Assembly (NCBI GenBank): GCA_963798955.1
Contig: CAWCVO010000002.1
Location: 512,122-576,121 of the forward strand
Origin: an uncultured Chloroflexia bacterium
GTDB taxonomy: Bacteria; Chloroflexota; Limnocylindria; Limnocylindrales; CSP1-4
Length of the DNA stretch: 64,000 nt
Reading direction: 5' to 3'
The notes under the pieces are model-generated. The model was not told where the DNA came from. It searched no databases and worked only from the letters and a program-made list of their open reading frames with translations. Shown piece by piece: positions 15,331 through 25,945 of the stretch (its first letter is position 1; the number at the start of each line of letters is the position of its first letter). The position numbers and the translations under genes were made by a program.

Positions 15331-15353
15331 CACATACTCCATGGGAGTATGTG
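15331..15353. promoter_or_regulatory. 10-bp inverted repeat upstream of dnaA (possible operator), overlapping a weak DnaA box
   Basis: CACATACTCC-atg-GGAGTATGTG. AAATCCACA at 15326-15334. Confidence 0.4.
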
Positions 15354-20927: not shown

Positions 20928-21335
20928 CTAGATCGCGCGCATCCTGTTGTTGCGCGCCTCGTGGGTGACCTCGGCCAGGCCGAGCGCCTCAAGCAGCGGC
21001 GGCATGTAGACACCGAAACGGCCGCGCAGGCCCTTCTTCAGTCCGTACCAACCACCGACCGGATTGGCTGGCGAGCGGCCCCACGCCTCGACGCTTCCAT
21101 CGGGCGCTGGCTTCTGCTCGTCGGCACCGCCGAGTGCCATCCAATCGCCATCCGCCTTGAGCATTGCGTGCAGGTCATCGATCGCCCGCTTGTGGTAGCG
21201 CAGCTGCGTGCCACCCACCTGGCAGACGATGGCAGGCGGATCGGACTCGTCGTCGATCCACATCTGGTACTCGGAGGTGCCCGGCGGCGTCTTCAGCAGC
21301 CAGGGATCTCCTTTGGTTCCGCTTCCTTCGACCAC
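20928..21335 (-). CDS. Conserved hypothetical protein (DUF6855-like)
   Basis: GTKGDPWLLKTPPGTSEY...NPVGGWYGLKKGLRGRFG...NNRMRAI. Family name recalled, not searched. Confidence 0.7.
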   Translation of the reverse strand: MVEGSGTKGDPWLLKTPPGTSEYQMWIDDESDPPAIVCQVGGTQLRYHKRAIDDLHAMLKADGDWMALGGADEQKPAPDGSVEAWGRSPANPVGGWYGLKKGLRGRFGVYMPPLLEALGLAEVTHEARNNRMRAI

Positions 21336-21420
21336 CTTGCGTCCCTCGGTATCGCTGACTCAGGTTGAGTTGCAGACGATAGCGTGCCCGTGGTCAAGGA
21401 GAAGTGGCGCAGCGCCAGAC

Positions 21421-21790
21421 TGGTGGAGATGGGGGAGAGTCGAACTCCCCGTCCAGAGCGTTCAGCCGAGAACCACTACGAGCGTGTTCGATGCTTTATC
21501 GTCAATCTGGCGGGCCGCCATCGACAGCGTCCTGCCCGATCCATCCACGTCCCTTGCGGGCTTTGCGACCGATTACGTGGCCTGGCCGATCGCGCATCCC
21601 CGCTGAATGACGCTTCCACAGCCCGCGGGGATGGGGCTGCTTCCACGCTCACTTGGCCGCCTTAGGCGGCGTAGGCGAGAGCAGGCTGGCGGTTGCCAGT
21701 TACTTCGTTTTGCCGTCTGTTTAACGAGGCCTGACGGCACCTCGGCTCGCGTTTCCCGGGGATCCGGCCCTGTCGAAACCACTCATCCCC
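21421..21790 (-). ncRNA. ssrA: tmRNA; tag peptide (A)GNRQPALAYAA at 21697-21662
   Basis: 5' GGGGATGAGTGGTTTCGAC, 3' GGAGTTCGACTCTCCCCCATCTCCACCA, internal GTAACT-GGC AAC CGC CAG CCT GCT CTC GCC TAC GCC GCC TAA. Adjacent to smpB. Confidence 0.96.
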
Positions 21791-21798
21791 AGACCGGC

Positions 21799-21823
21799 AT
21801 TTTACCAGTAGAACACATGTTCG
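21799..21823 (-). promoter_or_regulatory. tmRNA promoter -10 (TAAAAT) with adjacent LexA-type box GAAC-N4-GTTC
   Basis: ATTTTA at 21799-21804 and aGAACacatGTTCg at 21810-21823. Confidence 0.6.
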
Positions 21824-21842
21824 ACAACTGGTCGCTCGTGAT

Positions 21843-22307
21843 CTAACGGCGACCGCGAATAACGTCGGCCAGCTCGCGTTCCACGTCTCGTCGGCTCTGC
21901 CGCTCGGCGATGTCGCGGCGCCGGTCGTGGAGCTGCTTGCCACGCGCCAGGCCGAGCTCAACCTTTGCCCGACCACGGTCGCTGAGGTAGAGCCGCAGGG
22001 GAACCACGGTCAGGCCTTTCGCTGCCGCGCGGCCCATGAGCTGGTCGATCTGCGCCCGATGAAGTAGCAGCTTGCGGTCGCGGCGTGGCTCATGGTTGTA
22101 GCGGTTGCCCTGCTCGAAGGGCGCGATGTGGGCGTTCATCAGCCACGCCTCGCCCCTTTCGACGCGCGCGTAGGCGTCGGCCAGGTTCACCTTTCCGGCG
22201 CGGATGCTCTTGATCTCCGTGCCTGTCAGCACCAGACCGGCCTCGAACGTATCCGTGATGAGGTAGTTGTGGCGCGCCTTGCGGTTGAGCGCCACGGTTT
22301 CGCCCAC
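21843..22307 (-). CDS. smpB: SsrA-binding protein SmpB
   Basis: ALNRKARHNY, EAGLVLTGTEIKSIR, RKLLLHR, GKQLHDRR. AAGGAG lies 8 nt before GTG 22307. Confidence 0.97.
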   Translation of the reverse strand: MGETVALNRKARHNYLITDTFEAGLVLTGTEIKSIRAGKVNLADAYARVERGEAWLMNAHIAPFEQGNRYNHEPRRDRKLLLHRAQIDQLMGRAAAKGLTVVPLRLYLSDRGRAKVELGLARGKQLHDRRRDIAERQSRRDVERELADVIRGRR

Positions 22308-22332
22308 GACATTGACTCCTTCAGACACACGA

Positions 22333-22357
22333 ACGCCGGCCCGAGGTGGGCCGGCGT
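22333..22357 (-). terminator. 10-bp GC-rich hairpin just upstream of smpB (terminator/attenuator candidate)
   Basis: ACGCCGGCCC-ACCTC-GGGCCGGCGT, followed on the minus strand by TCGTGTGTCT (weak U-tract). Confidence 0.55.
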
Positions 22358-22392
22358 CTTCGTGGCTGCTTTCACCACCCTCGGGTGTCAGC

Positions 22393-22440
22393 TCAGGCGA
22401 GCATCCCCCGAGAGGTGGCGCAGCGAGACTGATCTAACAC
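22393..22440 (-). CDS. Putative 15-aa leader peptide MLDQSRCATSRGMLA
   Basis: AAAGGAGGTGAT (12-nt complement of the canonical 16S 3' end) closely precedes the GTG. TGA at 22395-22393. Confidence 0.5.
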   Translation of the reverse strand: MLDQSRCATSRGMLA

Positions 22441-22519
22441 TGCACATCACCTCCTTTCGTTCCCGATCACATTACCCGAGGTGCGCCGCGGCCGCAAGGC
22501 CGATCTCAGGCACTGGAAA

Positions 22520-23884
22520 CTACGCGGCGGCGGGCGCCCGCCAGCCGGACAATGCCGGCGATGTGCCGGGAGACGCTGCTGGCGGCGGGCCGAGGACTTC
22601 CTGGATGGCGCGATCGAGTTGCGGATCACCGGACTGGCCGCTGGCCGCCGGCGCCACGACGATGTCGGGGGTCAGCCCGACGCCGTGGATCCAGGTCTGG
22701 TCGGGGGTCAGCCACTTCTTGACCGACAGGCGGTAGCCACCGGCGTCGGGCAGTTGCTTGAACTCCTGGATTGTTCCCTTGCCATAGGTCTGCTCGCCGA
22801 TGAGCAAGGCGCGATGGTTGCCATGCAGCGAGGCCGAGACAATTTCGCTGGCGCTGGCCGTGCCGCCATTCACCAGGACTGCCACGGGCAAAGCTGGGTT
22901 GGTGGCGACCCCACCGAGGATGGGCGCGATGGCCACTGGCGGTTGATTGGCCGCCTGCTCCCAGTACAGCGGGCTGGTATCGACGAACTCGCTGGCGATC
23001 TGCTTGGCAGCATCGACGTACCCACCGGGGTCGTCGCGCAGGTCGAGCACGATGGCGCTGACGTGATCGGCGTCGACGAGCTGCTGCAGCTGATCGTGAA
23101 AGTCGCTGGCGGCCGCCGCGCTGAAGTCGGCGATCTTGATGTAGCCAACCGTGCCGTTGGCCAGCACCTCGCTGGTCACGTCCACACGTTGAACCACGTC
23201 GCGGGTGACGGGCACATCACGCGTCGTGCCGCCGCGCTCGATGGTCAGCGTCACGACCGTGTGTTGGGGGCCACGGATGAGCGGTACGACGTCGTCGATC
23301 TTCATGCCGCTCACTGACGTTCCGTCCACCGCCAGGATGACGTCGCCGGCGGCAAGTCCGGCGGTAACCGCCGGCGCACCGCGGATGACATTGGTGATGA
23401 CCAGCTGGCAGGTGCTCGAGATGGTGTCGCAGGTCTCGCCCTGGCCGCCCTTGACCGTCAGCTCGACGCCGACACCCACGAACTCACCCGATAGCCCACT
23501 CAGGCTGGCCTGGTACTGTTCCTGGGTCATGTAGAAGGAGAACGGGTCACCGAGCGCCTCGAAGATGCCGTTGATGGCACCTTCGACGAGCGTATGTTGG
23601 TCGACCGTGCCCACGTAGTTCGAGGTCACGTCGTTGTAGGCGTCCCAGAACGGCCTGAACAGTTCTTCCTGGCTTGCCGTGGTGCCGGGCGTCGAACCGG
23701 CCAGCCGTCCGAGCGCGAAGCCGGACACGAAGAGGCCACCCCCGAAGAGGATGGCCACGAGCAGGAGGGCGACCACCGTGAACGGACGGGGGCGCCGGCG
23801 GCGCTCCACCTGCAGCACTGCGACCGGCTCGTCCGGCGGGTCGCCGGGAGCTTTCAGTGCGTCGCCGGAGAAGGCATCGTTCAT
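22520..23884 (-). CDS. ctpA: S41 family C-terminal processing protease (PDZ + tail-specific protease)
   Basis: LGDPFSFY, PDZ (GAPAVTAGLAAGDVILAVDG), LDLRDDPGG, TASASEI, GEQTYGKG. Confidence 0.9.
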   Translation of the reverse strand: MNDAFSGDALKAPGDPPDEPVAVLQVERRRRPRPFTVVALLLVAILFGGGLFVSGFALGRLAGSTPGTTASQEELFRPFWDAYNDVTSNYVGTVDQHTLVEGAINGIFEALGDPFSFYMTQEQYQASLSGLSGEFVGVGVELTVKGGQGETCDTISSTCQLVITNVIRGAPAVTAGLAAGDVILAVDGTSVSGMKIDDVVPLIRGPQHTVVTLTIERGGTTRDVPVTRDVVQRVDVTSEVLANGTVGYIKIADFSAAAASDFHDQLQQLVDADHVSAIVLDLRDDPGGYVDAAKQIASEFVDTSPLYWEQAANQPPVAIAPILGGVATNPALPVAVLVNGGTASASEIVSASLHGNHRALLIGEQTYGKGTIQEFKQLPDAGGYRLSVKKWLTPDQTWIHGVGLTPDIVVAPAASGQSGDPQLDRAIQEVLGPPPAASPGTSPALSGWRAPAAA

Positions 23885-23942
23885 GTGCTGGTAGACCTCG
23901 TGGTGCGGCTGCTGCCGAGTCTAGATCGGGTGTTCGATTTGC

Positions 23943-24818
23943 TCAGGGGAGCGCGAACGACGACGGCAGGTAGCGGCGGTGATCAATGGTCTGCCTCGTC
24001 GCGCAATAGATCGCTGGCGGCCCGTCGAGGCGCAGACCTGCACGAAGCAGGCTCACGAACGTCGCGCCGGCAGGTCCCGGGACGTTCATGGTCCAGGCCG
24101 GCACTTGCGGCAGCTGCGTCATCAGCCGGCCCACGAATGGCGCCAGGTCGGCCGCGTCGCTGACCACGACCGGGCCCAGGCGGCCGGAAGGCTGTACGTA
24201 GCCATAGCCAACCAGCGTCGGGCCCTGGTAGAGCCCGTAGGGCTGACGCGCCGCCGCTTGCCACCAGTCGTGGTCGAACGGCCGGCGCACGCGGGTCACC
24301 GCCCGGTCCAGAAGCTCCACGCCGTCGCGATACGGAAGTGGGCGGACGTCCAGTCCGCCGCGCAGCGCCGGCAGGTCGGCTGCCGCTCGTCCGGTGAAGG
24401 TGTAGATGGGTACTCGGGGGACCATCCCGTACTGTGCGTAGAGGGCGGCCGAAATGGGCTGGATGGCGAGGATGCACACTGCTCGGTGCTCGGCGCCGGC
24501 CATCGCCCGTTCGAGCAGCGCGCGCCCGATGCCCTTGGCCTGCTGACCGGGAAGGACGAACAGGAAGGACAGGAAAGCGGATCGCCGGTAGCCGATCGCC
24601 TGGCCGAAGCCCACTACGCGATGGCCGATGTGAGCCAGCCAGCCACGATCGGGGCTGACGTCCTGGATGTGGCCGAAGAGGCTCACCAGCGCGTCGCGAT
24701 TGTGGGGCATGAGTGGCATCCCGCGGCTGAGCGTCAGGTCGTCGTCGGCCGCGTAGAGCACGTCAGCGCACTCATCGAGGTCGGCCGCCGTCATCGGACG
24801 GTACTGGGGATCGGTCAC
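23943..24818 (-). CDS. GNAT family N-acetyltransferase
   Basis: LFVLPGQQAKGIGRALL acetyl-CoA motif, ALYAQYGM. Confidence 0.8.
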   Translation of the reverse strand: MTDPQYRPMTAADLDECADVLYAADDDLTLSRGMPLMPHNRDALVSLFGHIQDVSPDRGWLAHIGHRVVGFGQAIGYRRSAFLSFLFVLPGQQAKGIGRALLERAMAGAEHRAVCILAIQPISAALYAQYGMVPRVPIYTFTGRAAADLPALRGGLDVRPLPYRDGVELLDRAVTRVRRPFDHDWWQAAARQPYGLYQGPTLVGYGYVQPSGRLGPVVVSDAADLAPFVGRLMTQLPQVPAWTMNVPGPAGATFVSLLRAGLRLDGPPAIYCATRQTIDHRRYLPSSFALP

Positions 24819-24828
24819 GAGAACCGGG

Positions 24829-25945
24829 TCAGGCGCCGGGAGTCGACGTGTCGGTCGTGGCCACGCGTTCGAGTTCGGCGGTCATGAAGTCGTCGAGGTC
24901 GCCGTCCAGCACGTCCGAGGTCGCGCTCGTTTCGTGCTCGGTGCGGTGGTCCTTGACCATCTGATAGGGATGCAGGACGTAGGAACGGATCTGGTTCCCC
25001 CAGCCCGCTTCGACATGCTCGCCACGCAGGGCAGCAAGCTCGCGCTCGCGCTCCTCGAGGCGCCGCTCGAGCAGACGCGCCCGCAGCACCTTCATGGCGA
25101 ACTCGCGGTTCTGGTGCTGTGATCGTTCGTTCTGGCTCTGGGCGACGATGCCTGTTGGGAGGTGCGTGATGCGGACCGCCGAGTCCGTCTTGTTGACATG
25201 CTGACCGCCGGCGCCCTGTGAGCGGAAAGTGTCGATCTTCAACTCGTCCTCGGGGATTTCCCCGAGCTCGGTGTCATCCGCGACCTCGGGCAGCACCTCG
25301 ACGAGCGCGAACGTGGTGTGACGTCGTTTCTGCGAGTCGTACGGGCTGATGCGCACCAACCGATGCACGCCACGCTCCGCGCGCAGGTAGCCATAGGCCC
25401 GGCGGCCAGCGACGCTGACGGTAACGCTCTTGAGGCCTGCCTCCTCGCCTTCCAGTTGATCCAGGATCTCAGTGGCGAAGTGGTGCCGCTGCGCCCAGCG
25501 CAGGTACATGCGCAACAGCATCTCGGCCCAATCGGTGGCTTCGGTCCCGCCGGCGCCCGCGGTGACGGTCAGGATGGCGTCGTTGTTGTCGTATTCGCCT
25601 GAAAAGAGCAACGCCGAGCGTAAGCCGGCGAACTCGCGCCGGAGCGCCTCGAACTCCTGGTCGATGCCCGTGTCGAGCGAGCCGTCACCTGATTCGACAG
25701 CCAGTTGCGCCAACTCCTCCAGGTCGTGCGCACGCCGGGCGATCGTTCGCCAGGTCGTCACCTCGTCGCGCAATCCCTCGGCACGGCGGAGCACCTGTTG
25801 TGCCGCACGTTGATCGGCCCAGAAGTCGGGTTCGGCGGTTTGAGCGTCGAGCCCGTCCAGCTCGGTTTGCTTGGCGTCTAGGTCAAAGACGCCCCGAGGT
25901 CGCGTCGATCTGCTGAACCAGCTCGCGAACCTGAGCGCTGTCCAT
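24829..25945 (-). CDS. prfB: Peptide chain release factor 2, +1 programmed frameshift at CTT-TGA-C (25888-25882)
   Basis: Frame 1 MDSAQVRELVQQIDATSGRL-TGA, GGGG SD-like upstream, then +1 frame DLDAKQTEL...GAGGTEATDWAEML...GAGGQHVNKT...WGNQIRSY. Confidence 0.95.

Follow-up and report, generated by a model that had tools for sequence, protein, structure and literature searches.

SmpB is the protein that works with tmRNA to rescue ribosomes, and to our knowledge the control of its abundance in bacteria is poorly understood. Translation-related proteins often autoregulate via structures in their leaders, and several kinds of short RNA offer points of comparison for a structured region in front of such a gene. 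In mRNAs of the hok/sok type, metastable 5′ hairpins delay translation until the transcript is complete. Small RNAs (sRNAs) of the DapZ type are transcribed from a promoter within a gene's 3′ end and share a terminator with that gene. [quoted passage not shown] Here we describe an element of about 135 nucleotides (nt) that lies directly upstream of smpB on the minus strand of a 64,000-nt stretch of contig CAWCVO010000002.1, from an uncultured Chloroflexia bacterium of the Limnocylindrales. The whole stretch is referred to below as the window, and positions are counted from its first letter. The element is real and conserved. The literature searched, with subscription journals outside its scope, yielded no description of a leader, a uORF or any RNA motif preceding smpB, and nothing on RNA elements in Limnocylindria; within that scope the element is undescribed and constitutes a new RNA family for an uncultured class of Chloroflexota. 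Its interest lies in being a compact candidate, conserved class-wide, in which a putative promoter, an unusually long Shine-Dalgarno sequence (SD), a very short open reading frame (ORF) and a fold with two predicted states stand before smpB and near prfB and tmRNA.

The place had been singled out in a sequence-only reading of the window as an attenuator-like leader. The features on which that reading was built are all present on the minus strand: a segment 1 (CACCTCGGGT, 22483-22474), an SD (AAAGGAGGTGAT, 22457-22446), a GTG-started ORF of 15 codons plus TGA (22440-22393), a segment 2 (ACCCGAGGGTGG, 22386-22375) lying 6 nt past the stop, and a 10-bp hairpin (22357-22333) whose loop and 3′ arm repeat CACCTCGGG. 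The observation is confirmed by the work reported here. Its interpretation, in which segment 2 would pair either with segment 1 or with the hairpin, is partly supported.

Conservation of the element

The features of the element that the following analysis draws on are these.

22492..22497, minus strand: predicted −35-like hexamer TTGCGG; TTGC invariant or nearly so in the alignment
22469..22474, minus strand: predicted −10-like hexamer TAATGT; T, A and final T invariant in 14/14 loci at fixed spacing
22446..22463, minus strand: predicted 5′ end of the transcript and leader GGAACGAAAGGAGGTGAT, from conservation; includes the 12-nt SD at 22446-22457
22439..22453, minus strand: 5′ arm of helix A (SD core and spacer, running into the first bases of the start codon), pairing with 22412-22424
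22412..22424, minus strand: 3′ arm of helix A, the anti-SD-like ORF interior GCTGCGCCACCTC, from the fold, duplex energy and pairing count
22393..22440, minus strand: small ORF (sORF) MLDQSRCATSRGMLA with GTG start, 15 codons and TGA stop, open in 14/14 loci; translation predicted
22398..22418, minus strand: 5′ arm of helix B (ORF interior to near the stop codon), pairing with 22375-22391
22375..22391, minus strand: 3′ arm of helix B, containing segment 2, from covariation and duplex energy
22330..22362, minus strand: terminal hairpin (upper stem 22333-22357 plus lower stem CGAA/TTCG), from covariation

Scanning for SmpB in one genome per species gave 80 loci, of which the 13 closest (L001-L013; best-segment identity 67-90%), mostly metagenome-assembled genomes (MAGs) labelled Limnocylindrales, Chloroflexia or Chloroflexota, make up together with the window the 14 loci compared here. 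Counts of distribution cover loci retrieved via SmpB, plus the 64-kb window. The element of about 135 nt is found between a ctpA-like gene and smpB in all 14 of these Limnocylindria-like loci, and a ctpA homologue stands upstream on the same strand in 13/13 related loci. Conservation in relatives had been proposed as a check of the sequence-only reading, and the SD, the uORF, segment 2 and the hairpin are indeed kept in 14/14 loci, on the same strand upstream of smpB. An exact 10-mer, AAAGGAGGTG, occurs in one copy per locus in all 14, always on that strand upstream of smpB, and is absent from the remaining 67 fetched SmpB loci. Likewise, when searched with a covariance model built on six of the element sequences, each of the 14 loci gave a single full-length copy (E ≤ 7e-9), and no match of that quality came from the rest of the window or from 20 other loci. 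Judged by identity to the window copy across the 13 relatives, the element is conserved at the level of the smpB coding core (64-88% versus 69-84%).

A scan of Rfam, the other database check that had been suggested, matched no family to the element in the window or in its relatives. At gathering thresholds tmRNA alone was found, in the window and in 10/13 relatives. A search of 22200-22650 at E ≤ 10 returned weak terminator-like sRNA matches and no tRNA-like or tmRNA-like match in the region; over the hairpin the best sub-threshold match, to STnc450, scored 23.3 bits, below that family's gathering score of 37.

A separate remark concerns the origin of one relative. The record of L009 (contig CAYXZN010000030.1) is labelled as an uncultured Steroidobacteraceae (Gammaproteobacteria) MAG. 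Despite this label the contig has the order ctpA-element-smpB-tmRNA and an SmpB 73% identical to that of the window, and it may be mis-binned or mislabelled.

Two mutually exclusive predicted helices

The comparison of the 14 sequences also bears on the pairing of segment 2, whose conserved partner is the interior of the ORF. The earlier expectation of mutually exclusive pairings that involve segment 2 was borne out, and the partners it had proposed, segment 1 and the hairpin loop, were not. In helix B, which joins the ORF interior to the stretch containing segment 2, 95.4% of cells are paired and 9/17 pairs change on both sides. Examples are CGGG:CCCG versus CAGG:CCTG, and CACCAC:GTGGTG versus CACCGC:GCGGTG (L005). 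Helix B and the terminal hairpin jointly have 97.5% of cells paired and 15/30 pairs changed on both sides, and their covariation score in the structure-fitted alignment is 0.284, compared with 0.100 ± 0.014 in shuffles (0/500 as high) and with no more than 0.051 in the slid-partner control. When the stability of helix B is set against shuffled partners, 0-7 of 200 are as good, and this holds in 14/14 sequences.

The competing helix A would join the ORF interior to the SD core, to the spacer and to the beginning of the start codon. Across the 14 sequences 97.8% of its cells are paired, RNAalifold picks it as the consensus structure, and 0-5 of 200 shuffled partners equal it in stability, again in 14/14 sequences. 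The two helices are mutually exclusive because both use 22412-22418. Helix B supplies a third strand as a rival partner of the anti-SD strand, and the two folds are of similar energy. Unconstrained minimum-energy folds are A-type in 8/14 sequences and B-type in 6/14. When either helix is forced, the gap between the folds is at most 4.2 kcal/mol in 12/14 sequences (the exceptions being L003 at 5.7 and L009 at 9.1), and the constrained folds have total energies of −55 to −77 kcal/mol. Being near-equal in energy and mutually exclusive, the predicted folds therefore describe a conserved two-state RNA in which the ribosome-binding site of the sORF is either closed or open. In the long hairpin formed by helix B, the stop codon is located in or beside the apical loop.

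Two further structural possibilities were considered. Inspection by eye led us to reject the idea that helix B holds a kink-turn or another of the named loop motifs, the conserved GACAC after the stop being mostly paired. Neither was there any indication of a riboswitch aptamer: Rfam gave no match, and the conserved bases outside the SD are explained by helix A, helix B and the hairpin.

The small open reading frame

Translation of the sORF is likely, because the spacing from GGAGG to the start is fixed at 9 nt in 14/14 loci, GTG and ATG replace one another as start, three stop codons are used interchangeably, and indels within the frame are all multiples of three. The frame is open in all 14 loci and has 13 codons in one locus, 14 in one, 15 in nine and 16 in three. 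It starts with GTG in 12 loci and with ATG in two (L007 and L008), where the G-to-A change breaks one pair of helix A and the start codon is kept. The stop is TGA in four loci, TAG in five and TAA in five; in L001 a new stop has appeared one codon earlier and the usual one is lost. Indels of 1 and 2 nt appear downstream of the sORF.

The peptide sequence itself is probably unimportant, and the third base of a Ser codon covaries with its helix B partner. We found no cluster of codons for a sensed amino acid in the sORF. Its sole repeat is ACC ACC (ACC GCC in three sequences and GCC ACC in the window), and the bases of this repeat are those that pair with the SD. A reading of the Cys/Ser/Thr-rich product as resembling a ribosomally synthesised and post-translationally modified peptide was rejected, as it is too short for a leader plus a core and the core is dictated by RNA pairing.

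The putative promoter and the predicted 5′ end

Upstream of the SD, the motif TTGNNN-17 nt-TANNNT is present at −40/−41 from the SD in 13/14 loci, the exception being L002, which has CTGGCG. The 17-nt spacer between the hexamers is variable across the alignment. In the 1,400 nt scanned per locus the motif has three matches elsewhere, all in front of tmRNA. Conservation resumes 6-8 nt past the −10 hexamer, at GAACGAAAGGAGG; this pattern suggests that the hexamers act as a promoter and that the transcript would start at that point. The predicted 5′ end is nearly invariant across the alignment, reading GAACGAAAGGAGGTG(A/G)TGTGCA(G/A)TG, and the first 26 nt of the element are 88-100% identical to the window in the 13 relatives. 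The unpaired 5′ bases that extend the SD are among the invariant positions. The SD would be complementary to the tail of 16S rRNA beyond the CCUCC core; the window holds no 16S gene. Allowing up to one mismatch, the SD 11-mer AAGGAGGTGAT is unique in the 64 kb (1 match versus 0.35 expected).

The terminal hairpin and its relation to smpB

The upper stem of the terminal hairpin (22357-22333) is a perfect 10 bp with a 5-nt loop. All of its cells (100%) are paired in the alignment, 6/13 pairs change on both sides, and the loop sequence is variable among relatives. Counts by eye give 3-5 T per 10 nt of tail in 12 loci and 8 per 10 in L003 and L011, and part of the tail is paired within the covarying lower stem. 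A consensus terminator scan does not report this hairpin, nor does it report any terminator-like site between the ctpA stop and the element, and ctpA transcripts may therefore end at the hairpin too. A stable hairpin with a tail that is poor in U in most loci would fit a leaky terminator or an intercistronic hairpin. The influence of a ribosome was modelled by partition function in 13 sequences (L009, whose hairpin the search pattern missed, left out), with its footprint masked at each codon or absent. The mean pair probability of the hairpin was 0.99-1.00 at every ribosome position and without a ribosome, in 13/13 sequences.

In the window, smpB starts 26 nt past the hairpin stem. It has its own SD, which falls beyond the conserved element and, in the fold of the window sequence, stays free of pairing. 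The motif TTGNNN-17-TANNNT is found between the hairpin and smpB in none of the 14 loci, and a promoter for smpB alone is unlikely to fit in the window because the 26-nt gap leaves no room for it. This suggests that smpB is read through from the promoter of the element, at least in short-spacer genomes. If smpB is transcribed by read-through, the element is therefore the 5′ leader of the smpB mRNA.

The spacers of three relatives have features of their own. L003 (2822-2990) and L011 (2761-2990) share a conserved hairpin-smpB spacer of about 170-230 nt, which holds an inverted repeat, GCGCACC...GGTGCGC, that is absent from the other loci. The longest spacer, about 430 nt from hairpin to smpB, is that of L010 (2550-2985), and no convincing gene was identified in it.

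Proposed mechanism and alternative explanations

The reading that we tentatively favour, as a real possibility that falls a little short of being probable, is a translation-gated small-ORF leader on its own promoter, with a leaky terminal hairpin and smpB expressed by read-through. According to this model, the promoter TTGCGG-17-TAATGT would start an RNA of about 135 nt at the conserved GAACGAAAGGAGG, and this RNA would open with a very long SD followed, after 9 nt, by the GTG of the 15-codon ORF. The ORF interior (CCACCTC and flanks) could pair back with the SD and start codon, as helix A, leaving the site closed, or forward with the post-stop segment, as helix B, leaving it open. Helix A would form first during transcription. 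Once the downstream strand has been made, or a 30S subunit has invaded at the unpaired 5′ toehold, helix B would follow and open the site. A translating ribosome would melt helix B and, once it is at the stop, the ORF strand would re-emerge behind it and could re-close the site; translation of the sORF would in this way be gated by the RNA itself. A bolder extension, which we regard as improbable, is that the element senses free ribosomes and adjusts rescue accordingly: a 30S subunit would open helix A via the 12-13-nt SD toehold and flip the RNA to helix B, thereby setting how much smpB message is made or survives, or else the peptide would partner the trans-translation machinery. If true, such a sensor would let the availability of ribosomes feed back on the supply of SmpB, for which we know of no described precedent.

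A number of observations weigh against the favoured model. Helix A has zero compensatory changes and is supported by conservation and energy; since its two arms hardly vary, no double-sided change is seen in it. Covariation was scored on an alignment that had been fitted to the model structure, which favours that structure, although the slid controls and the cognate-versus-foreign duplex energies agree with helix B despite this. The bases that encode the conserved S-C-T-T-S core of the peptide are also those that pair with the SD, and for this reason conservation of the peptide is not independent evidence of coding. The candidate promoter falls below threshold and is not reported by an E. coli-consensus promoter scan, and each of its hexamers matches that consensus at 3/6 positions (manual count). 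The distance from hairpin to smpB ranges from 26 nt in the window, through about 32-68 nt in eight relatives, to about 430 nt in L010. Absence of a recognisable smpB promoter is weak evidence because the motif also misses 11/14 tmRNA promoters. The U-rich tails of L003 and L011 are typical of full terminators and fit an independent gene equally well. Finally, masked-ribosome modelling revealed no structural route from translation of the ORF to read-through of the hairpin.

Several of these points would be expected if the element were a stand-alone small gene, either a micropeptide mRNA or a dual-function sRNA, whose position before smpB reflects inherited synteny while smpB uses promoters that went undetected. 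The unit looks complete in itself, with a putative promoter, an ORF and a stable 3′ hairpin that forms in all modelled conditions. Between clades the spacer to smpB (26 to about 430 nt) shows no conservation, and U-rich tails coincide with long spacers in L003 and L011. Moreover, because ctpA-smpB synteny is itself conserved (13/13), linkage of the element to smpB proves little alone. What makes this explanation rather unlikely in our view, if still one to be taken seriously, is that the gap of 26 nt in the window and about 32-68 nt in eight relatives either leaves no room for a promoter or lacks the motif. In these short-spacer loci smpB has an SD and must therefore have a leader. In addition, a hydrophilic peptide of 13-16 residues with a core dictated by pairing is unlikely to be a functional protein. 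That last consideration, namely that RNA constraints explain the peptide core, would also suit a structured leader that is not translated at all and is bound by a protein or ligand, as in autoregulation by SmpB, with the SD-like strand merely serving as a helix arm. Helix B and the hairpin are under structural selection, as such a leader would require. Nevertheless, we consider it unlikely, given that the start keeps a constant distance of 9 nt from GGAGG, that GTG and ATG are swapped, that three stops serve at one place and that all indels are 3n, and given the invariant unpaired bases that extend the SD at its 5′ side. No conserved unpaired pocket remains once helix B is drawn, and the region 22200-22650 lacks tRNA-like or tmRNA-like matches at E ≤ 10. 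Complementarity between leader and tmRNA is not above shuffles in 5/6 loci, in a crude test with whole-length duplexes and 15 shuffles in which the L009 value is unreliable, part of its hairpin being included.

The attenuator originally proposed, with segment 1 and the hairpin as alternative partners of segment 2 and with transcription into smpB under its control, now appears very improbable. Both pairings do exist in the window. A 221-nt fold that includes the upstream region pairs segment 1 with segment 2 (z = −2.85; 1/200 shuffles as good), this pairing taken by itself is equalled by 18/200 shuffles, and that of segment 2 with the hairpin is unusually good there (4/200). Neither, however, stands above shuffles in the 13 relatives, where 13-191/200 are as good for the former and 19-156/200 for the latter. 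Segment 1 falls within the variable promoter spacer and overlaps the first base of the −10 hexamer; since it is situated between the conserved −35 and −10, it is probably outside the element's own transcript. On the hairpin side, the loop varies and the repeated 9-mer CACCTCGGG is not enriched (30 occurrences with up to one mismatch in the window versus 32 expected). The 1:2 / 2:3 / 3:4 layout as a whole also fails to appear, as there is no 2:3 antiterminator and the hairpin always forms, with the same near-maximal pair probability in 13/13 sequences. With neither an antiterminator nor a regulatory codon run, the element is therefore not a trp-type attenuator. The remaining alternative, which the sequence-only reading had itself named as what would undo it, is that the hairpin is simply the ctpA terminator and the remainder is chance in GC-rich intergenic DNA. 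It could draw on the lack of any terminator-like site between the ctpA stop and the element and on the unremarkable frequency of CACCTCGGG. As a complete explanation it is refuted by the conservation of the whole 135 nt in 14/14 loci, at the level of a coding gene and with two covarying helices, and we give it hardly any credence.

If translation of the sORF is coupled to smpB output, then regulation of trans-translation capacity becomes directly testable. Should the element turn out to be nothing more than a self-gated small gene, it would still illustrate cleanly, in a natural RNA, the exchange between an SD, an anti-SD and an anti-anti-SD strand, with covariation.

Neighbouring genes and other observations

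The genes around the element are as follows.

21421..21790, minus strand: tmRNA gene; Rfam tmRNA 123 bits, ARAGORN tag GNRQPALAYAA
21843..22307, minus strand: smpB; GTG start at 22307, SD GAAGGAG at 22316-22322, Pfam SmpB 202 bits
22520..23884, minus strand: ctpA-like S41 C-terminal processing protease, the upstream neighbour of the element; Pfam Peptidase_S41 and PDZ
24829-25794, minus strand: peptide chain release factor ORF; PCRF and RF-1 domains

In order of transcription, and all on the minus strand, the genes are those for the release factor, a GNAT acetyltransferase and the ctpA-like protease, then the element, smpB and tmRNA. Genes for translation termination and rescue thus cluster on one strand between 21421 and 25944, from a prfB-like factor through to tmRNA. 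The release-factor gene has an ATG at 25944 followed by 20 codons that run into CTT TGA C (25888-25882, minus strand), with GGGG before the CTT TGA C, and the PCRF/RF-1 ORF at 24829-25794 is in a different frame from this ATG. The arrangement resembles the programmed +1 frameshift of prfB (RF2).

A promoter-like site for tmRNA, TTGTCG-17-TAAAAT (21827-21799, minus strand), ends 8 nt before the mature 5′ end GGGGATGA, and in a consensus promoter scan of 21300-24000 this site alone passes. A tmRNA gene lies downstream of smpB on the same strand in 10/13 relatives, at a distance of between about 60 nt and about 2 kb. Three of these tmRNAs (L001, L003 and the L012/L013 group) escaped ARAGORN and were recovered by the Rfam model. 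Further away in the window, 15331-15353 forms a perfect 10-bp hairpin with a 3-nt loop (CACATACTCC CAT GGAGTATGTG) that is unusually AT-rich for this GC-rich sequence. The whole 64 kb contains just six perfect hairpins with 9 bp or more, among them this one and the terminal hairpin of the element.

Comparison with known systems

The element shares much of its inventory with the trp/his/thr/leu leaders, including a short ORF with its own SD, a GC-rich hairpin before the downstream gene, and mutually exclusive helices that use the ORF and a segment after its stop. It departs from them in having no antiterminator, no run of sensed codons and, in most loci, a weak U tract. Furthermore, in the element the alternative partner of the ORF strand is the SD of that same ORF. 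Strand exchange also recalls the ermC/cat leaders, which combine a small upstream ORF with competition between SD, anti-SD and anti-anti-SD strands; here, however, it is the SD of the sORF that would be sequestered and not that of smpB. The element is not of ermC type, because the smpB SD falls outside the conserved region, its distance varying between loci, and takes no part in pairing in the window fold. Leaders of the whiB7/vmlR type are likewise reported to place a uORF and a terminator-like hairpin before a gene for translation stress, and differ in the antiterminator, for which no counterpart is detectable in the element.

Outside the leaders, the proposed order of events recalls hok/sok, in that a hairpin closing the SD would form first and a later, downstream strand would refold it to permit translation of a short ORF. 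In contrast to that system, the peptide is hydrophilic, with 13-16 residues, and is no membrane toxin; there is no evident antisense RNA and no 5′-3′ fold-back was seen. The DapZ type is brought to mind by the putative promoter just past the ctpA stop, the short RNA and a hairpin that possibly ends ctpA transcripts as well, whereas the element differs from it in its conserved ORF with a full ribosome-binding site and in being followed by a gene without a recognised promoter. On this comparison of sequences, the element, with its possible regulatory link to ribosome rescue, would represent a new form of small-ORF leader, distinguished by a predicted switch that sequesters the SD of its own small ORF.

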